A DNA stretch of 64,000 nt from an uncultured Candidatus Micrarchaeota archaeon (lineage in GTDB: Archaea; Micrarchaeota; Micrarchaeia; Anstonellales; Bilamarchaeaceae). The position numbers and the translations under genes were made by a program. The notes beneath the pieces were generated by a model, which was not told the DNA's origin, did no database searches, and saw only the letters and a program-made list of their open reading frames with translations. The DNA is taken from NCBI GenBank assembly GCA_963791815.1, contig CAWBTT010000004.1, positions 130,215 through 194,214 of the forward strand, given 5' to 3'. This document shows positions 6,602 through 23,690 of the stretch, piece by piece. Within the stretch, counting starts at the first letter, position 1, and each line of letters starts with the position of its first letter.

Positions 6602-8578
6602 TCATTCATCCTCAGTTCTTCTCGGGGTAGCCCTTCGAACTGAACCCTCGGTTGGCGATGGCCTGAAGAACTCTCCAATGTTGAACTGAAGGTTCAGTCC
6701 ACCGAATGGAGTTCCTGGAAGCCTGTCGACTTCCTCTCCGCCGACCTCGCCAAGGTATCCTCCGCGAAGGTCCACCTGGAACATTCTGCGGTATGAGTAG
6801 CCAAGTCCGAGATAGCCCTCAAATGTGTGGACCGTGTTCCCGAAGTTGTAATCATACCTAAGGCCAGGGCCCGCAAAGAAGCGGTGCTGGCCTTCCTCAC
6901 CAGCATAAACTGAAAGGTTGAGCGGTCTAATGTCCCCGCCTACCCTGTGCTGCCTGAGGAAGTATGAGTACTGTGGCGTGATTGTTGACTGGAGTCTTAC
7001 ACGGTTCCCTTCCATCCAGTTGCCCTCCATTGTTATGTAGGCAAGGGGATTCATGAGTACTCCGGTTGTGTCTCCTCCTGGTGCCTGCTCAAGCGTTGGA
7101 ACCACGCCAAGACCGACCCTTGAGAGCCTGACTATTCCGCGGTTTCCTTCTTGGCCTGGGAATCTGACTTCAACGCTTGTCAAACCAAGCATCGCACCGG
7201 AATCTCCGACTTCAAGCGTTTCGGTTGAGCCGTCTGTCATTGCAACTTGCCCTGACATGCTCCACTCCTGATGCGGAATCACTGTTGCGCCAATCACGAT
7301 TTCCATTGGTACTGCCCAGCTCTCTCCGCCGACACCTGTACCGATTGCAATTTCTGGCCTCAAACCAACTGAATGGCCGGTGCCAGAAAGCCTTGTCCTT
7401 CCGACGGTTCTAAGTTCCTGAGTCTGCGGGTCGACCTGAAGCTGCTGGAGCTGTCCGCTCATTGCAAGGTATTCATAGTACAATCCAAGTGAAGTCCAGA
7501 TGAACCTCGGCTCAAAGCCGCCATGCCGTGTTCCTCTCATATACTCCTGGAACGCCTGCATGTTCTGGTCGAACTCGTATCGGACCGTTACTCCTGCTCT
7601 GAAAATCGCGACTGCCCTCTGGTTAACTGAAATGACATAGAGGTTGTTCAGCGACTGGAAAATACTGTTTAGGGTTGACTCACCAGCAAGTGACTGAAGA
7701 CCGCCTGAGAGGTCTCCTGACTGCAATTTTCTCATCGCATCCTGGAACCCTGGCCTCTGCCAGATTTCTCTCTCAGATGGAATCGCGCTCAGCGCGTTGA
7801 AAAGCGCTGTCGCAGCCGTCCTCAGTGCTGCTGCATCATTTGGATGGTTTGCAAGTACTGCGTAACCATTTGCAATTGCGTTGACACCTGCCTGTGCTGC
7901 TGCCTGATCCCCAAAAATCGCGCTCATCTCAAGACCCGGAGTCGCGTTGATTGCAACGACTGATTCCTGGCTGCCACGGCTCAGCAGTGTAATGTTACCA
8001 AGGTCATGCATTGGCACTTCAATAATTGGAAGCGCGGTTGCCCTTGCCGCTTCGTCAACTTCCCTTGGGCCTGTCTGGGCGTCTGTTGAGACACCTTCAG
8101 TCACGCCAAGAAGAGCTGTAAGCATAGCAAGATGAGAAGCGAATTCGCTGTATCCCTCTTCGTCAGCTGATGCCCCTCTGCTAATCCTCTGGAGCATTGT
8201 CCTGAATGCGGTTGCATTGTCTCCAAGAGCTGCTGCATCCTGCGGCTGAAGTTCCTGAAGCCTCTGCAGTGAAGCAACAAGTGCCCTCTGGGCATAGCCA
8301 AGTGCGCCTTCGCGTCCTTCGCCTTCTCCAAGCCTCACGATTGCCTGATCATAAACCCTCCTCATAGGGTCGCTTTCAGCCGGCCGCCCACCAAGAAGAA
8401 CCTGGTGAATCTGCGCGATTCTGAGCGAGTTGTTCACCGAAGCTCTCGCTGTCGGTGCCCTTGACGGATGGGTAGGCCTGTCTGTCCTACCTGCAATAAT
8501 GTCCAAAAATCCTACTAACTGGTCTGCTGAATAGAGACCCTGTGATTCAGTCGGTGTTTCCCGTTGCGCCTGTGCCAT
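6602..8578 (-). CDS. orphan 658-aa protein: helical N-terminal half, beta-strand-rich porin-like C-terminal half
   Basis: Long ORF with GGGGTGA 6 nt upstream of the ATG. Only one Lys in 658 residues. The C-terminal ~300 aa are alternating amphipathic Gly/aromatic-rich strands ending in GGLNLQFNIGEFF. No family recognised. Confidence 0.6.
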   Translation of the reverse strand: MAQAQRETPTESQGLYSADQLVGFLDIIAGRTDRPTHPSRAPTARASVNNSLRIAQIHQVLLGGRPAESDPMRRVYDQAIVRLGEGEGREGALGYAQRALVASLQRLQELQPQDAAALGDNATAFRTMLQRISRGASADEEGYSEFASHLAMLTALLGVTEGVSTDAQTGPREVDEAARATALPIIEVPMHDLGNITLLSRGSQESVVAINATPGLEMSAIFGDQAAAQAGVNAIANGYAVLANHPNDAAALRTAATALFNALSAIPSEREIWQRPGFQDAMRKLQSGDLSGGLQSLAGESTLNSIFQSLNNLYVISVNQRAVAIFRAGVTVRYEFDQNMQAFQEYMRGTRHGGFEPRFIWTSLGLYYEYLAMSGQLQQLQVDPQTQELRTVGRTRLSGTGHSVGLRPEIAIGTGVGGESWAVPMEIVIGATVIPHQEWSMSGQVAMTDGSTETLEVGDSGAMLGLTSVEVRFPGQEGNRGIVRLSRVGLGVVPTLEQAPGGDTTGVLMNPLAYITMEGNWMEGNRVRLQSTITPQYSYFLRQHRVGGDIRPLNLSVYAGEEGQHRFFAGPGLRYDYNFGNTVHTFEGYLGLGYSYRRMFQVDLRGGYLGEVGGEEVDRLPGTPFGGLNLQFNIGEFFRPSPTEGSVRRATPRRTEDE

Positions 8579-8584
8579 TTTTAG

Positions 8585-8740
8585 TCACCCCAAAGTGAAT
8601 GCTAATGGTATAGGAGCCTCGAACTTTAAAATATGCTCCGGTGACGCAACAAGAGCCGCCAGACCAAATGCCGCTGCCGCGCAAACCTTCTTTGCCCGCG
8701 TGACAATCCCATTTCGTTTTTCATTGTGTCTGAGTTTCAC
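8585..8740 (-). CDS. candidate 51-aa membrane or secreted peptide
   Basis: GTG start 7 nt downstream of a perfect AGGAGGT. Translation: (M)KLRHNEKRNGIVTRAKKVCAAAAFGLAALVASPEHILKFEAPIPLAFTLG. The stop lies 6 nt before the ATG of gene 6602..8578. Below the ORF-track size cutoff. Confidence 0.35.
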   Translation of the reverse strand: MKLRHNEKRNGIVTRAKKVCAAAAFGLAALVASPEHILKFEAPIPLAFTLG

Positions 8741-14905: not shown

Positions 14906-16141
14906 CTAATCCTCAGCCTTTGCAAACTCAACCGGCTGCCTTGTGTATGCCCGTGTTCCGGAAGGAACGTTCTTGTTTATTGAAACTCCGGAGTGAATCC
15001 AGCAGTCCTTCCCGATTATTTTTCCTGGCATGGTGCAGGAGAGCACGCCGAATTTTGTGTTGTCCCCTATTATTGCCCCGAGTTTTTTCCTGCCCGTATT
15101 CACCCAGCCTTTTTCAGTAAGCACATTGATGTATCCTTCATCAAAACGGAAGTTCGCAATCTGGGTGCCGGAGCCGAAGTTGACATTTTCGCCGATTACA
15201 CTGTCCCCGATATATGTGAGGTGTTTGGCATTTACATTGTCAAAGAGGATACTGTTTTTCACTGTCGAGCCTGCGCCGATTGAGCAGTTTCTCCCTATTG
15301 AGTTGAAACCGCGGATATATGCATTCGGGCCAATCACTGTTCCTTTTCCTATGTATGAGCAGCCCTCAACATAGCTGTGGGTAATTTTTGCCCCTTCTTC
15401 CATGATTACTTTGCCGTTTATTGTTGAGTTGTCCACCGCTCCGGACTGCGACTCAAGTTTCTGAAGAAGGAATTCATTAGCACCAAAAAGATCCCATGGA
15501 TATCCGATGTCTCTCCAATAGCCATCTACAACTACCGCAGTTGAACCGACAAGAATATTTGTAAGCTCATATTCTCCGCGCTCAGATTTCCCGACTGATT
15601 TCAAATCATTCAAGGCAGTTGGCTCCATACAGTAAACAGAAAGGTTTGCAAGGTCAGTTTTCGGGTGCTGTGGTTTTTCCTCAAATAAACTCACTTTCCC
15701 CCCTGAGATTTCAACAACTCCATATTCCCTAGGGTTCTTCACTTTCTTTACCGCGAGTGTGATGCGGCCTTCGCGTCCTTCAATAACGCTCTTGATTACC
15801 GCTGACTCTGTGATTGTATCTCCTGCTAGCACGACAAAAGTATCATTGAGTTCGGATTCTGCGCAAAGCAGCGCTGTTCCTGTCCCTTTCTCAGGACCCT
15901 GCTCAATGAATTTCAGCTTGATTCCCAAATCAACTTCTGAGAAGTAGTCGATGATTTTTTCCTTCATGTACCTGACTATTATGAGCGCTTCGCTGATTCC
16001 GGCTTTCTTAGCTTCTACCAAAAGATGGTGCAGGATTGGTTTTCCTGCGACATAGAGCATTGCCTTTGGCCTCGTAAGTGTAAGAGGCCGGAGCCGCACC
16101 CCCTCGCCTGCTGCCAGAATTACTGCTTTCATTAGAATCAT
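14906..16141 (-). CDS. bifunctional sugar-1-phosphate nucleotidyltransferase/acetyltransferase (GlmU-like, N-terminal NTP-transferase plus left-handed beta-helix)
   Basis: KAVILAAGEGVRLRPLT nucleotidyltransferase motif. C-terminal hexapeptide repeats (IGDSVIGENVNFGSGTQI and others). Confidence 0.8.
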   Translation of the reverse strand: MILMKAVILAAGEGVRLRPLTLTRPKAMLYVAGKPILHHLLVEAKKAGISEALIIVRYMKEKIIDYFSEVDLGIKLKFIEQGPEKGTGTALLCAESELNDTFVVLAGDTITESAVIKSVIEGREGRITLAVKKVKNPREYGVVEISGGKVSLFEEKPQHPKTDLANLSVYCMEPTALNDLKSVGKSERGEYELTNILVGSTAVVVDGYWRDIGYPWDLFGANEFLLQKLESQSGAVDNSTINGKVIMEEGAKITHSYVEGCSYIGKGTVIGPNAYIRGFNSIGRNCSIGAGSTVKNSILFDNVNAKHLTYIGDSVIGENVNFGSGTQIANFRFDEGYINVLTEKGWVNTGRKKLGAIIGDNTKFGVLSCTMPGKIIGKDCWIHSGVSINKNVPSGTRAYTRQPVEFAKAED

Positions 16142-16217
16142 CTTGTTCTCTGAAATTTAAGTGCTTTATGTATAACAAACATAATCATTTATAAATTGTA
16201 ACAAATAAAGTAAAGTG

Positions 16218-16955
16218 ATGCGCAAAAGAAAGAGCCTGGCTTTCAAAAGAGAAAAGCCAACTATGACAAAGAATCTTTTTTTCTCAACACTTGCCTTTGC
16301 AGCGACAATAACTTCTTGCGCGCCGGCTGTCACAGCACTCCCAAGAAGAGAGATTCAAAGGGAAACCACGATTACTGAGACAATAAGAAGAACTGAAAGA
16401 GCATGCAGAGTTGACCCAAGGAACTGGCTTAGGAAAGGGGAGAGGCTCAGGGGAACTGTGTGCAGGGACGGAAGGATTTTCGCACTGACAGAGGGCAGCC
16501 TCCTGATAGGAAGAGAGGCAACCGGAGACTTCTTTTTCAGTGACATCACACTCGAATCAAGCCATTCCAGAACAGATATGGCAGGGATACTTCGGGCAGG
16601 CCTGGTCGATTGGACAGCCTCACAAGACACTGCATATTTCCTGACAAGAGACAGGATGCTTACGCCAATCCCTGTTGGAGATATGGGAGAGCGGCTTAAC
16701 TCATATGAGATTCCAGCTGCGTACCTAAGCGGAAAGATGGAATTCCACAACGACTTTCTTTTGATTGCAGGAGCAGGAAAGATAATGGCAGTATCGTTTG
16801 ACCCGCACCTGGATTCAAGAGAGATACCATTCAGATTAAGAACAAAAACCGCAGATTTTTTCCAGCGTGAAGGAAAACTGTTTTTCGGAAATGAAAGAGA
16901 AAGAATAGAAATAATTTTTGAGAGCTCAAGGCTCTCAGATATCCGGGTTCGCTAA
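16218..16955 (+). CDS. putative lipoprotein (orphan)
   Basis: MTKNLFFSTLAFAATITSC signal with lipobox-like Cys. atttataaatt lies about 30 nt upstream of ATG 16218. Confidence 0.5.
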   Translation: MRKRKSLAFKREKPTMTKNLFFSTLAFAATITSCAPAVTALPRREIQRETTITETIRRTERACRVDPRNWLRKGERLRGTVCRDGRIFALTEGSLLIGREATGDFFFSDITLESSHSRTDMAGILRAGLVDWTASQDTAYFLTRDRMLTPIPVGDMGERLNSYEIPAAYLSGKMEFHNDFLLIAGAGKIMAVSFDPHLDSREIPFRLRTKTADFFQREGKLFFGNERERIEIIFESSRLSDIRVR

Positions 16956-17614
16956 CCGCTTGAGGGGCGTCTTCTAATAGACGCTACAGTAATAAGGTCC
17001 TCAGGCCTCTGGCCACCCAGCATGGACCTTTCCATACGGTTGTACCTGCCCACATAAGTTCTTGCAAACTGCTGACGCTGTGCTGCATTCAACTGTCTTC
17101 GGGCGCCAGTAGATGAAACTGCATAAACTCTCATTCCAGAAGCGCCTTCTACAAGAGCTTGGCGAAGTTGGCCCAATCTTGAACGTGCAAGGCCGGCAGT
17201 TCCAGTTCCGCTTCTTGCAGGCAGTTCAGTTCTGCTTACAACCTCATATGTACGAGTTCCCATAGTTACGCGGTAGGCATATGTCCTCTCAGGAGTTCTT
17301 CTTGGAACAGTTCTAATGGTTGGGCTGCGCACAGGTCCGTGGAGAAGGGTAAGATCACTAAGAATTTCCCTCCTCTGTCTTGGACGTGCGCGTCCATTTG
17401 CCATCGTAGAGGCTATCCTATTCAAATCATTGACATCCAGCCAGCTCTGATTTACAGCAACATTCTGGCCCCTTGCGAGCCTCCCTGCTAAGCCCATGAT
17501 TGTTGTGGCCTGCTGCCGGGAATACCCCCCGCTAATAAGCTGCTGCTGAATCTGCATGTTGAACTGCTGCATTGTCATTCCAGGTTGTTGTGTCCTTCTT
17601 CTTGATTGCGCCAT
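16952..17614 (-). CDS. Arg/Gln-rich lysine-free orphan protein, paralogue of 17621..18115
   Basis: GAGGTGAT Shine-Dalgarno 6 nt upstream of the ATG. No Lys in 220 aa. The core YRVTMGTRTYEVVSRTELPARSG aligns with the upstream paralogue. Confidence 0.6.
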   Translation of the reverse strand: MAQSRRRTQQPGMTMQQFNMQIQQQLISGGYSRQQATTIMGLAGRLARGQNVAVNQSWLDVNDLNRIASTMANGRARPRQRREILSDLTLLHGPVRSPTIRTVPRRTPERTYAYRVTMGTRTYEVVSRTELPARSGTGTAGLARSRLGQLRQALVEGASGMRVYAVSSTGARRQLNAAQRQQFARTYVGRYNRMERSMLGGQRPEDLITVASIRRRPSSG

Positions 17615-17620
17615 ACGAAA

Positions 17621-18115
17621 TCACCTCGAAGATGCTACTCTCACTTCTCTGCTTGGAACATACTGTCCCCCGCGGAAGGTCCGGGAAAGATAATCATCCC
17701 TAAAAATGTCAAGCCTTGCGTTTGGCGCTCGTGCATTGAAACGTTCATGGTTTCCTGGTCCGCCAATCTGCTGAACATCAGCATGTACTACTGCACCCCC
17801 AGTCTCAACAAGCTGGTTGCCAACAAGAAGTTCGTGAAGCCTTTCCCTTCCGCCCCTTGCAGGAAGCCTTTCAGGAAGAGTAACGCGGTAAGCTCTATCT
17901 CCAACACTTACACGATAAACATGCTGTTCAATTCTCCTAGGAGTAGGTCGGGTAGTTGGGCGTACTGTTCCCGCGCGCCTTCCTGCCGCCGCGCCCTGCT
18001 GAAGAAGATCCAGAACGTTCCGCAACATGTTCTTGATTTCAACCATTTCCTGCTGAAGGGATTGAAGAGTAGGTGCCTGCGTCCTTTGCCGTGGTTTACG
18101 AGCAGCTTGTGCCAT
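17621..18115 (-). CDS. Arg-rich orphan protein, paralogue of 16952..17614
   Basis: Core YRVSVGDRAYRVTLPERLPARGG is identical to its neighbour at 13 of 23 positions. N-terminus is MAQAARKPRQRTQAP. Two Lys in 164 aa. Confidence 0.6.
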   Translation of the reverse strand: MAQAARKPRQRTQAPTLQSLQQEMVEIKNMLRNVLDLLQQGAAAGRRAGTVRPTTRPTPRRIEQHVYRVSVGDRAYRVTLPERLPARGGRERLHELLVGNQLVETGGAVVHADVQQIGGPGNHERFNARAPNARLDIFRDDYLSRTFRGGQYVPSREVRVASSR

Positions 18116-18140
18116 ATATATCAGAAATACTTTGATGGCA

Positions 18141-18152
18141 AGTTTTTTTAAG
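18141..18152. promoter_or_regulatory. shared A/T block, candidate bidirectional TATA element
   Basis: agtttttttaag is centred about 27 nt upstream of purP ATG 18174 and about 31 nt upstream of the divergent ATG 18115. This suggests two leaderless transcripts. Confidence 0.3.
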
Positions 18153-18173
18153 AGAAGTCATACTCAATATCAT

Positions 18174-19214
18174 ATGCTCGATAAGAAGAGGATAGACGAT
18201 TTGCTATCTAATTATGAGGATTTTAAAATCGCAACAATTTGTTCACATTCTTCACTCCAGATATTCCACGGCGCCCGCAAAGAGGGCATAAAAACAGTCG
18301 GGATTGTCCAGAAAGGGAAACGAAAACTATACGAATCGTTCCCATATGGAAGACCGGATGAGTTCATAGAGGTTGACAGCTACAGCGACGTACCAGTCAA
18401 AGAGCTTGTGGACAATAACGCGATTGTGATACCGCACGGCTCATTTGTTGAATATGTCGGACCGAAATTTGATGATATGGAACTGCCTGTTTACGGAAAC
18501 CGCCAAAGTTTGATGTGGGAGCGGAACAGGTCCAAAATGTTCGAGTGGATTGACAAGGCAGGAATACCAAGACCAAAGATTCTTAAGCCCGAAGATATTG
18601 ACGGCCCTGCGCTTGTGAAATTCCCAGGCGCAAAGGGCGGGCAGGGATACCTGATAGTCAACAGCTACAATGAATTCGAAAAGAAAGTTGGCGAGCAGGA
18701 GTGCATGATTCAAGAGTTCATAATCGGGGTGCGCGCATACCCGCATTTCTTCTTCTCCCCATTCGGAGATGTTGGATACAAAACAGAGAAGGGAAGAATT
18801 GAAATGCTCGGTGTTGACACAAGAGTTGAGAGCAGCGCTGATGAAATTGCAAGGGCAGTATCAGTCGGTTTGAAACCAAAACTGGCATTCACAGTTGTCG
18901 GCAATGAACCCATGGTTCTTCGCGAATCCCTTCTTAGCACCTACATGGAATTCGGAAAGAAAATAAGTGACGCTTCATTCGATTTGTTCGGAGGAATTTA
19001 CGGTCCGTTCTGCATTGAGACAATCATCAATGAGGATTTGGAAATCTATGCATTTGAAGTCAGCGCGCGGATTGTCGCTGGAACAAATGTTTATCCGGAA
19101 GGCTCACCTTACTCTGTTTATTATTATGACAAACCTATGAGCACCGGGCGAAGAATAGCAATTGAACTCAAGCTTGCCAAGGAGAAAGGAAAACTTTCCG
19201 AGGTTGTTTACTGA
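18174..19214 (+). CDS. purP: 5-formaminoimidazole-4-carboxamide ribonucleotide synthetase
   Basis: IATICSHSSLQIFHGARKEGIKTVGI and an ATP-grasp-like remainder match archaeal PurP. Start placed at MLDKKRIDDL. Confidence 0.8.
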   Translation: MLDKKRIDDLLSNYEDFKIATICSHSSLQIFHGARKEGIKTVGIVQKGKRKLYESFPYGRPDEFIEVDSYSDVPVKELVDNNAIVIPHGSFVEYVGPKFDDMELPVYGNRQSLMWERNRSKMFEWIDKAGIPRPKILKPEDIDGPALVKFPGAKGGQGYLIVNSYNEFEKKVGEQECMIQEFIIGVRAYPHFFFSPFGDVGYKTEKGRIEMLGVDTRVESSADEIARAVSVGLKPKLAFTVVGNEPMVLRESLLSTYMEFGKKISDASFDLFGGIYGPFCIETIINEDLEIYAFEVSARIVAGTNVYPEGSPYSVYYYDKPMSTGRRIAIELKLAKEKGKLSEVVY

Positions 19215-22979: not shown

Positions 22980-23690
22980 TTATAAGGATGTTTTCAACGC
23001 TGTCAGAGCCTGGTCCGCAACTGCCTCTCCGGAAACCGGCTGCCGCGGGGCGGGCCTTAGGCTATTGATATCCACAACTCCTGCTGGCAGCGCAGCCCTT
23101 GGCATGTCCTCTGCCATTGGAGGCCTTAGCGCCTCAAGAAGCCGAAGGAAGTTCTCGGCAGTCCTTGCTGCATATTGCACATCGCAGCTGCCGTAATTGC
23201 CCTCTCGGACGACATAGGTTCTTTCAGTCCTTGGCTCATACCATCTGAGGACCTTCTTGCCCTCTGCGGTCTGCATAGTGCGGGTGCGTAGTTCATATCG
23301 GTCTTCATCTGTGGGGCCAGTTACAGGCTCAGAGCGCAGCGAGAGCTTGAATCCCATGGCAGAAACCATGTGCTCAAGGTCTGTGTCTAATGAGCGGTCC
23401 GTGGTCCGGAATTCATATCTGGTGGCCACTTTGGTTGGTTGCTCCCTTCCACCCACAAGCTCAAGTACCGCACCATAGGTATCACTGGCCTTTTCCTTTG
23501 CCTCAATAAACTTGAAATAATCCTTGCGGGCTCTTCTTCCTCCAAAAAGCGCAATTACATTGTGCACTTCCTGGTCAGACAAAGTCCTTGCGCCTTCTAA
23601 TAGCGGCGCGGCATTGCGTAGATTCTTCCTCGGTTGTTCCGATGGCACGGGGCCTAACTTTCGAACTGGTGCGTTCCTCATGGTGGTCAC
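22980..23690 (-). CDS. Arg-rich orphan protein
   Basis: Open frame with tttataaa and GGTGA upstream of ATG 23681 (GTG 23690 is also possible). Internal RYEFRTT / RYELRTRT repeat. TERTYVVRE resembles PERTYAYRV of gene 16952..17614. Confidence 0.5.
   Translation of the reverse strand: MTTMRNAPVRKLGPVPSEQPRKNLRNAAPLLEGARTLSDQEVHNVIALFGGRRARKDYFKFIEAKEKASDTYGAVLELVGGREQPTKVATRYEFRTTDRSLDTDLEHMVSAMGFKLSLRSEPVTGPTDEDRYELRTRTMQTAEGKKVLRWYEPRTERTYVVREGNYGSCDVQYAARTAENFLRLLEALRPPMAEDMPRAALPAGVVDINSLRPAPRQPVSGEAVADQALTALKTSL

Follow-up and report, generated by a model that had tools for sequence, protein, structure and literature searches.

The locus

The window, a stretch of 64,000 nucleotides (nt), comprises positions 130215-194214 of contig 4 of an uncultured Micrarchaeota genome in five contigs (1.47 Mb, 46 % G+C). 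Micrarchaeota belong to the DPANN archaea, and the organism is a tiny symbiont. It contains a pair of adjacent minus-strand genes encoding lysine-poor proteins of 164 and 220 amino acids (aa), in a genome whose predicted proteins have a median lysine content of 7.6 %. Both proteins begin with a short N-terminal tag, which consists of M-A-Q, one to three residues, a cluster of R or K, and then P, T, E or Q. The same tag heads several unrelated lysine-poor proteins. The locus runs from a divergent purP gene through the pair to a convergent gene for a lipobox protein and a sugar-nucleotide (NTP) transferase gene. Start sites in this genome and its relatives were inferred. The pair and the elements that belong to it are as follows, with the evidence in brackets.

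17621..18115, minus strand: gene of the 164-aa paralogue, first of the pair (open reading frame (ORF), orthologues, AlphaFold2 model)
16952..17614, minus strand: gene of the 220-aa lysine-free paralogue, second of the pair (ORF, orthologues, AlphaFold2 model)
18068..18115, minus strand: N-terminal tag of the 164-aa protein, MAQAARKPRQRTQAPT (matrix score, predicted local distance difference test (pLDDT), conservation)
17576..17614, minus strand: N-terminal tag of the 220-aa protein, MAQSRRRTQQPGM (matrix score, pLDDT, orthologue starts)
17615..17627, minus strand: coupling junction, with the Shine-Dalgarno sequence GAGGTGA (17621-17627) and a 6-nt spacer (read from the sequence)
18143..18151, minus strand: TATA-like TTAAAAAAA, candidate promoter of the pair (read from the sequence, in the spacer to the divergent purP)

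The TGA stop of the 164-aa gene lies inside GAGGTGA and the ATG of the 220-aa gene follows 6 nt further on, so that the pair is translationally coupled. Relatives have the same layout, with the stop in GGTGA or GGTGG, a spacer of 5-10 nt and then ATG GCN CAR. The two frames are in register across the 6-nt gap, which had raised the idea of a read-through fusion of the paralogues; in relatives the spacer length differs. The TATA-like TTAAAAAAA is centred about 32 nt before the ATG of the 164-aa gene. In relatives, TTAAAAAG is found further upstream of the first gene, together with a GGAAGTGAT Shine-Dalgarno sequence.

The two proteins as a family

The two genes had been proposed to be paralogues, and this holds. 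BLASTP aligned the proteins at 35 % identity across 110 residues (E 5e-7), with the N-termini as a separate weak segment. Profiles built from the two orthologue sets matched each other over 144 columns (probability 96.4 %, E 1.1e-9). When ten orthologues of each were aligned together, homology extended from end to end, through the tag, a helical part, a Pro-rich linker and a core with the motifs Y.Y.V..G.R.Y.V, RL..LL, F..Y and a last strand I.I..RR. Two details of the original prediction need correction. The identity of its quoted 23-residue segment, given as 13 of 23, is 12 of 23 by our recount, and its description of both proteins as lysine-free is right for the 220-aa protein and wrong for the 164-aa protein, which has K7 and K28.

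The phylum was sampled with 401 genomes, of which 10, all of one genus, gave matches to a single protein as query. The family profile found matches in 17 of the 401, including 15 of the 27 genomes of that genus and one in a sister genus, and among 1.84 billion representative proteins it matched 87 clusters at E <= 0.001. Three scans with back-translated patterns, two over genome contigs and one over metagenome contigs, recovered 0, 1 and 2 loci. In every recovered purP locus the two genes adjoin each other, and this place beside purP is fixed in most species of one genus; one species has three tandem copies there, and a few family members are located away from purP in some genomes. The protein family is confined to one Micrarchaeota family, mainly to one genus, and is undescribed.

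Compared with the closest relative, the nonsynonymous divergence (dN) was 0.23 for the 220-aa gene and 0.15 for the 164-aa gene, 3-4 times higher than for PurP and the NTP-transferase (0.05-0.06), while synonymous divergence was saturated (dS >1.5). In distant relatives the pair retains 25-48 % identity, compared with 69-79 % for PurP. Both are real genes under purifying selection and evolve at a pace like that of the neighbouring lipoprotein.

One species carries an in-frame TAA in its homologue of the 220-aa gene (L001:6747-6749, and likewise in the assemblies L002, L003, L009 and L019), at a position where its close relative L020 has GAA (Glu). The codon falls at the boundary of N-domain and linker (..ARRILAT*FGLLHGPERR..), and gene callers report a 76-aa N-terminal piece alone. 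This homologue could be a pseudogene, a split gene or a case of read-through.

The N-terminal tag

The quoted N-termini of the pair, and the MAQAQRETPTESQ start of a 658-aa protein elsewhere in the window, had been given correctly. Within the genus, 8 of the 10 orthologues of the 164-aa protein begin with MAQ and a basic cluster, and orthologues of the 220-aa protein begin with MAQPRRRTQQPPM, MAEARRRTQQPPM, MAQRRRAPS.. and similar sequences. In the DNA of relatives the tag start was present even where gene callers had taken a later Met, and further family starts read from DNA were MAQAVRKPRERTQEP, MAQRQRPPVPETQ, MAQAQRKPPVRNEGE, MAQTQRPTEARLSE and MAQKQQKQETIQQ. Lysine-rich members carry the tag with K for R (MAQAQKYPEEE, MAQKQKPPVEE, MAQAMKKKETGEE). 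Among 91 gene-called members, 25 start with MAQ, 43 have Ala at position 2, and 75 have A, T, P, V, G or S there. Codon 2 was GCA in 22, GCG in 10 and GCT in 8 of 40 starts, and codon 3 was CAA in 28 and CAG in 12. Hence, codons 2 and 3 vary synonymously, which indicates that the constraint acts on the protein.

A position matrix for residues 2-10, trained solely on family members from other genomes, was applied to every start codon of this genome that is followed by an open frame of 100 codons or more, 20,867 in all. The 164-aa protein ranked first (18.3), the 220-aa protein second (16.8) and the unrelated 658-aa protein third (15.4; MAQAQRETPT). The next-ranked tagged starts were those of a 2898-aa protein (MAERRRVRRQ), a start-like MAQTARRTTP of a fragmented giant and a 156-aa protein (MAESRRTPEE), and a 6158-aa protein (MAQRERTPGG) and a 359-aa protein (MAGPRRNLRR) were also top-ranked. 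All top-ranked tagged proteins have less than 2 % lysine. The lysine-normal matches interleaved in the ranking are internal methionines, the fifth or later start of their own ORF. The prediction that unrelated proteins have the tag in common is thus borne out by the proteins of 658, 6158, 2898, 359 and 156 aa and by a family of membrane-anchored giants of about 2,900 aa. The 156-aa protein is itself a lysine-poor, arginine-rich orphan (G000 C2:325609-326079, plus strand; start MAESRRTPEEM, tag score 11.9).

As a control matched for composition we used 15,574 internal 9-mers of the same proteins. In 8 of 15 unrelated, signal-less, lysine-poor ORFs the N-terminus fell in the top 1 % of the internal 9-mers (binomial P = 6e-13, which is optimistic by a small factor because some start codons were chosen after the scores had been seen). 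Three of the seven other ORFs are fragments of one broken gene and do not have true N-termini. We also asked whether the motif is equally frequent at random N-termini. It is not: of 903 lysine-normal genes, no called start scored as high as the lowest of the eight best tagged starts. Weaker tag-like starts occur, for example on ribosomal protein uL3 (8.7) and a primase subunit, and only one of these weaker starts reads MAQ. The genome has roughly 1,400 predicted genes, and about five ordinary ones begin with MAQ. The tag is a real, selected feature, not a product of chance.

Gene contexts of the tagged proteins

The unrelated tagged proteins occur in three recurrent contexts, for which the following genes are relevant.

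6602..8578, minus strand: gene of the unrelated lysine-poor 658-aa protein with tag MAQAQRETPTESQ (matrix rank, orthologues)
8585..8740, minus strand: 51-aa membrane micro-ORF directly upstream of the 658-aa gene (conserved across the genus)
G000 C3:308171-308479 (plus strand), C4:33308-33619 (plus strand) and C3:91375-91623 (minus strand): lysine-rich helper genes upstream of the 6158-, 2898- and 359-aa genes

Orthologues of the 658-aa protein were found in 26 of 31 genomes of the genus, with starts that read MAQ-x-x-R/K or MGG and MTG variants; the tag start is kept also in species where the protein holds 27-51 lysines. The micro-ORF in front of it encodes a basic start, a hydrophobic helix and a C-terminal ..SP(E/G)(H/Q)(I/F)..PIPLAFT.., and its 3' end and the Shine-Dalgarno sequence of the 658-aa gene overlap. 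Three species (L030, L038, L040) have the micro-ORF fused in frame to the 658-aa gene (anchor...[ITS]-M-A|[QS]..V, where the bar marks the predicted cleavage site), which places a signal anchor ahead of ..MA|QAQV. Micro-ORF and 658-aa gene share a frame in this genome, and we considered whether read-through joins the two. Between species the offset of their frames varies (0, 1 or 2) and PIPLAFT is conserved, so the micro-ORF is a separate gene and not part of a read-through product.

The 6158-, 2898- and 359-aa genes each lie 0-11 nt behind a gene for a helical protein of about 100 aa. These helper proteins are paralogous, share conserved W..S, H, W and RL..F..IC motifs, and stay lysine-rich where their partners are lysine-purged. 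No Pfam entry matches the helper family. Of 81 genomes of the taxonomic family, 42 encode it, in as many as 10 copies each. Genes downstream of helpers begin with MAQ, MAE, MAG or MVG and a basic cluster, and the tag was found behind the helper gene in all three cases in this genome and in most of 27 loci elsewhere.

In the giant family of about 2,900 aa, all 14 species have the motif immediately after a basic n-region and hydrophobic anchor; the context is G-x-N-[IL]-N-x-x-G-x-x-[AVI]-M-[AGS]-[QE], with a basic cluster after it. The junction reads [AVI]-M-[AGS]|Q/E-x-x-R-R, an A-x-A-type signal-peptidase context in which the tag is the predicted mature N-terminus. In these species (L119-L132), AATATAAA(Y)..(T/C)TCGGGGGTAAT is conserved about 30 nt upstream of an internal ATG GCA CAA, and the same nucleotides also encode the peptide N-I-N-N-x-G-G-N. 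A TATA-like box is centred about 26 nt before the internal ATG, and AATATAAA ... GGGGGT spans 30-10 nt upstream of it. This element suggests a promoter or ribosome-binding site, and its conservation makes a separately started, anchor-less isoform possible.

In the present genome, four consecutive ORFs on one strand (330, 557, 272 and 1734 aa; G000 C4:44806-53411) are pieces of one such giant gene, which is a single frame of 2,800-3,100 aa in 13 relatives (L120-L132). Pieces one and two both align to a single frame in L120 and L123. The gene is broken either by frameshifts or by assembly errors.

Lysine content

Data for both the pair's family and the 658-aa family were available in 12 species, and in each of these the two were either purged of lysine together or normal together. 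Both families have 0.1-1.8 % lysine in eight species and 3.4-8.6 % in the other four, while PurP and the NTP-transferase have 6-12 % in every species. The lipobox neighbour is intermediate, and goes from 8-10 % to 2-4 % lysine in species with a purged pair. Other lysine-purged proteins of the genome have Sec or lipobox signals, with lysine restricted to the cytoplasmic n-region. Within purged members of the pair's family, 21 of 85 lysines fall in the first 20 residues, where 9 % were expected, and K/(K+R) is 0.11 in the first 20 residues versus 0.035 in the rest.

Known export signals and modes of initiation

Neither of the pair nor the 658-aa protein has a classical signal peptide, as had been predicted. 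Hydrophobic stretches are absent: the maximum 19-residue Kyte-Doolittle means are 0.63 and 0.89 for the pair and 1.24 for the 658-aa protein, compared with 1.5-1.6 for the neighbouring lipobox protein and the micro-ORF. Over the 12- and 19-residue maxima these two give 1.6-2.0 and 1.5-2.3, respectively. In the first 70 residues of the pair the 12-residue maxima are 1.06 and 0.81. No hydrophobic h-region was found in any of 91 family members, and neither protein of the pair contains Cys, so that a lipobox is absent. Export by the Tat pathway was considered, as TatC is encoded in the genome. It was rejected: the SRRR of the 220-aa protein is followed by TQQPGMTMQQFNMQIQQQ without an h-region, and lysine-rich orthologues have K for R.

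A leaderless translation context, one of the explanations proposed earlier, is not general among the tagged genes. The 220-, 658-, 6158-, 2898- and 359-aa genes lie 5-12 nt behind a GGTGA-type Shine-Dalgarno sequence, and relatives of the 164-aa gene have a Shine-Dalgarno sequence as well.

Predicted structure and search for known families

AlphaFold2 models were made from 14-sequence alignments. The model of the 220-aa protein (pLDDT 82) consists of the tag (1-14), an N-domain (15-90) with four helices (15-28, 33-47, 61-76, 78-90), a disordered linker (91-110) and a core (112-213). The predicted core has the order two strands, helix, two strands, long helix and last strand (beta-beta-alpha-beta-beta-alpha-beta), and the protein has a basic tail that ends in RRRPSSG. 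For the 164-aa protein one good model of five was obtained, with a pLDDT of 74 overall and 84-92 in the core. Its predicted layout is a disordered tag (1-17), a long helix (18-45), a Pro/Arg-rich linker and an alpha/beta core (65-162) that is equivalent to the core of the 220-aa protein. In the tags, pLDDT was below 50 for residues 1-3 and 9-15 of the 164-aa protein and residues 1-8 of the 220-aa protein.

Searches for known families found no relatives. Pfam and PHROG gave nothing below E 0.07 for either protein, and among 74 family members no Pfam family was matched by more than two. The best match of the family profile to PDB sequences had E 0.72. Foldseek searches of both full-length models against PDB gave nothing significant (best E 0.2-0.4), the weak top matches of the 164-aa model being ribosomal protein uS9 and PprA (E 0.2-0.9). 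Against BFVD, the best match of the 220-aa model had E 0.07 and a template modelling (TM) score of 0.13.

The pair was suspected to be capsid-like, and this finds no backing, as there is no PHROG or BFVD match below E 0.07; PHROG head proteins were matched at E 0.076 and 0.36, over helical low-complexity parts. General binding of nucleic acids, also proposed, finds no clear support. The pair has isoelectric points (pI) of 12.0 and 11.5 and net charges of +25 and about +11, and the family is mostly basic (median pI 10.2; 76 of 91 members above pI 9), yet nine members are acidic (pI 4.6-5.5), including both paralogues of one species (4.6-4.7).

A C-terminal Gly is found in 40 of 108 members, and 18 of the 108 have Gly-Gly, mostly behind a basic run (..RRRPSGG, ..KKKGG), and the pair in the window ends in ..SSG and ..SSR. 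These ends and the strand order had prompted a comparison with ubiquitin-like beta-grasp modifiers. No beta-grasp match was found: the top 50 Foldseek matches to PDB for either model contain no ubiquitin, SAMP, ThiS or MoaD chain, and there is no such Pfam match.

Other features of the window

Three further features adjoin or lie near the pair.

16919..16937, minus strand: hairpin followed by a T-rich run, possible transcript end of the pair (15 nt past the stop of the 220-aa gene)
16215..16955, plus strand: convergent gene of a 246-aa lipobox protein (4-nt overlap with the 3' end of the pair)
22980-23690, minus strand: 236-aa orphan between genes for a Lhr-type helicase and a peptidyl-tRNA hydrolase

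The hairpin is weak, one such site comparing with 1.9 expected from shuffled sequences, and an Rfam search of 16000-19000 gave no match. A six-sequence alignment of the lipobox protein showed two invariant Cys in the mature part; the protein retains 33-40 % identity where PurP has 70-79 %, a rate as fast as that of the pair. An FHA-like domain in this lipoprotein was considered on the basis of one match (E 0.28) and set aside, since the same alignment gave nothing that could be tied to FHA. The plus-strand ORF 17606-18151 (181 aa, rich in Ser, Cys, Phe and Leu) is antisense to the 164-aa gene and is probably a mirror of that real gene. The 236-aa orphan, which has no Pfam match and is not lysine-poor, occupies the same place in relatives, with lengths of 225-233 aa in L001 and L004.

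Interpretation of the tag

Our preferred interpretation, to which we assign a probability of roughly 40 %, is that the pair belongs, as small members, to a cohort of proteins that are extracytoplasmic or face the host, and that the tag is the targeting or docking arm of this cohort. The pair consists of translationally coupled, small soluble paralogues that probably form a hetero-oligomer. The cohort comprises fast-evolving proteins that would function beyond the cytoplasm, whether in the envelope, on the host or within it, and some species have purged lysine from it. The first 10-16 residues form a flexible N-terminal arm common to the cohort, whose sequence is also the predicted mature N-terminus of those members that have a cleavable signal anchor (A-x-A|Q...). 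The arm could act as a short linear motif that brings unrelated proteins to a common partner, for which a translocation machine, the small helper proteins or a shared surface assembly are candidates. In signal-less members the arm would stand in place of a Sec signal. We favour this interpretation because the cohort shares both the arm and a loss of lysine that spares cytoplasmic neighbours, and because part of it is visibly Sec-dependent.

Several observations weigh against this interpretation. Positions 4-10 of the tag are compositional (R/K, P, T, E, Q), and the matrix favours any arginine-rich disordered N-terminus. The pair itself has none of the three contexts, that is, micro-ORF, helper or built-in anchor: neither a helper gene nor a micro-ORF lies upstream, its sole upstream neighbour is the divergent purP, and the helper family is unrelated to either paralogue (hhalign probability <1 %). 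The species compared for lysine content are related. Trees of neighbouring genes hint at more than one change of lysine state, with forks that are weakly supported and unrooted; when they are midpoint-rooted, lysine-normal species do not fall outside the purged ones, again with weak support. Furthermore, the tag is present in lysine-rich species, so that it predates the purge and the two features are not causally tied. Finally, if the tag of signal-anchored members lies outside the cell, it cannot also be a cytoplasmic export signal, which leaves docking and export undistinguished.

A bolder alternative, about half as probable, is that the tag is a new Sec-independent sorting signal in archaea, by which the cohort would be sent through a non-Sec translocase to the symbiont surface or into the host. 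The cohort would range from 160-aa subunits to 6,000-aa giants, some of them handed over by dedicated helpers. A conserved VirB4/HerA-like operon, about 7 kb upstream of the window, would be one candidate for the translocase, and the 164-aa and 220-aa proteins might be a small delivered effector or adaptor complex.

The main competing explanation, which we consider unlikely, is that the tag is an N-terminal maturation or stability module that provides a blocked, protease-resistant end and a basic arm in any compartment. At an M-A start, Met would be removed and Ala acetylated at its N-terminus, and cleavage at A|Q would expose a Gln that can cyclise to pyroglutamate. The small residues at position 2 of 75 of the 91 family members agree with this, being substrates of methionine aminopeptidase. 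The signal-anchored giants have Q or E at +1 of the A-x-A-type site in all 14 species, and several Sec-type lysine-purged proteins read ..ARA|QD.. or ..AHA|QE.. at the corresponding place. Moreover, the only primary amine of a lysine-free protein is its alpha-amino group, and blocking it would complete the purge. However, such a module accounts for M-A-Q and not for the conserved basic cluster and the P/T/E/Q run, and the motif occurs in lysine-rich species too. Ordinary cytoplasmic proteins also need stable N-termini, yet apart from those few with a MAQ start they do without it.

Translation initiation could favour the same start if ATG GCA CAA and an A-rich, unstructured 5' coding end were advantageous in coupled or leaderless, highly expressed genes, with the residues as a by-product. 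All tagged genes that were checked do lie 5-12 nt past a GGTGA-type Shine-Dalgarno sequence overlapping the stop of the preceding gene, or near a TATA-like box; GCA is the most frequent codon 2 and CAA the most frequent codon 3; and the giants have AATATAAA ... GGGGGT upstream of their internal ATG GCA CAA. We nevertheless regard this explanation as improbable. Synonymous codons are used freely (GCG and GCT in 18 of 40 starts, CAG in 12 of 40), and the conserved character spans 10-15 residues with differing codons. Hundreds of coupled genes in the genome have no MAQ start, and Shine-Dalgarno sequences, TATA-like boxes and internal sites among the tagged genes leave no initiation mode common to all.

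As improbable, in our view, is a cytoplasmic pair with a chromatin-like, RNA-binding or capsid-like role, in which the tag would be an arginine-rich arm of the type found in lambda N or viral coat proteins. The high pI of the pair and of 76 of 91 family members speaks for such a role, as do the weak matches of the 164-aa model to uS9 and PprA, and the N-terminus AQSRRR resembles the arginine-rich motif of lambda N, a likeness that we take as a lead only. Conversely, the nine acidic members, the presence of the tag on giants of 658-6158 aa and behind membrane anchors, and the absence of any structure or profile match to a nucleic-acid-binding or capsid family all speak against it. The family is also lysine-purged where its cytoplasmic neighbours are not. 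Moreover, the locus is chromosomal, lies between housekeeping genes and is syntenic across the genus, and hence is not a provirus.

It is very improbable that R-, A- and Q-rich orphans share this start by coincidence: the class is indeed rich in A (9-14 %), R (8-16 %) and Q (5-10 %), which positions 4-10 of the matrix reward, but the N-termini of eight unrelated members of the class beat 99 % of the internal 9-mers, 5 or 6 of about 14 such proteins have AQ at positions 2-3, against less than 1 % expected from composition, and the tag is kept in orthologues with 25-45 % overall identity. Initiation of translation, a role in nucleic-acid binding or in capsids, and chance are thus the less likely explanations.

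Comparison with known systems and implications

Type III effectors with their chaperones and LXG toxins with Lap1/Lap2 (type VIIb) likewise have a short, disordered, non-hydrophobic N-terminus on unrelated proteins, and the ~100-aa helper genes in front of the 6158-, 2898- and 359-aa proteins follow a similar logic. This likeness is one of sequence and gene arrangement, and there are differences: the organism is an archaeon, the pair has no helper, and the motif is also found behind Sec-type anchors. The giants of about 2,900 aa ([AVI]-M-[AGS]|Q) and, in three species, the 658-aa family resemble Sec signal-peptidase I junctions (A-x-A|) with an N-terminal Gln. Mature bacterio-opsin is an example of an N-terminal glutamine or pyroglutamate in exported archaeal proteins. 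Unlike at Sec junctions, the pair and all 91 members have no n-region or h-region, the Met of the motif is the initiator, and cleavage is a prediction.

Several tagged proteins have S-R-R-R or R-R near the N-terminus, as Tat signal peptides do. Unlike in Tat signals, no h-region follows R-R, and lysine-rich orthologues have KK or QK for RR, a replacement that Tat signals are not known to tolerate. The near-total replacement of K by R under selection, confined to a certain set of proteins in a proteome that otherwise has 7-8 % lysine, recalls lysine deserts (Kampmeyer et al. 2023, PMC10169902) and the lysine-poor A chains of ER-translocating AB toxins. Those are explained by avoidance of ubiquitin-type tagging in eukaryotic cells, whereas the present case concerns an archaeon, in which the purge differs between lineages of a genus. 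Furthermore, an N-terminal tag is no part of the concept of lysine deserts.

We know of no dedicated protein-export signal established in archaea beyond the Sec, Tat and pilin-type signals. The contact of DPANN archaea with their hosts, and what is sent across it, is largely obscure. Here, one searchable motif joins the lysine-purged proteins, the small helpers in front of giant genes and the orphan surface operons of Micrarchaeota. If the motif is a sorting or docking signal, it would define the substrate list of an unrecognised machine; if it is a mere N-terminal blocking device, it would still bear on the avoidance of every primary amine in these proteins. The pair itself is a compact, confidently folded family without known relatives, and would be a practical choice for structure and antibody work in Micrarchaeota co-cultures.

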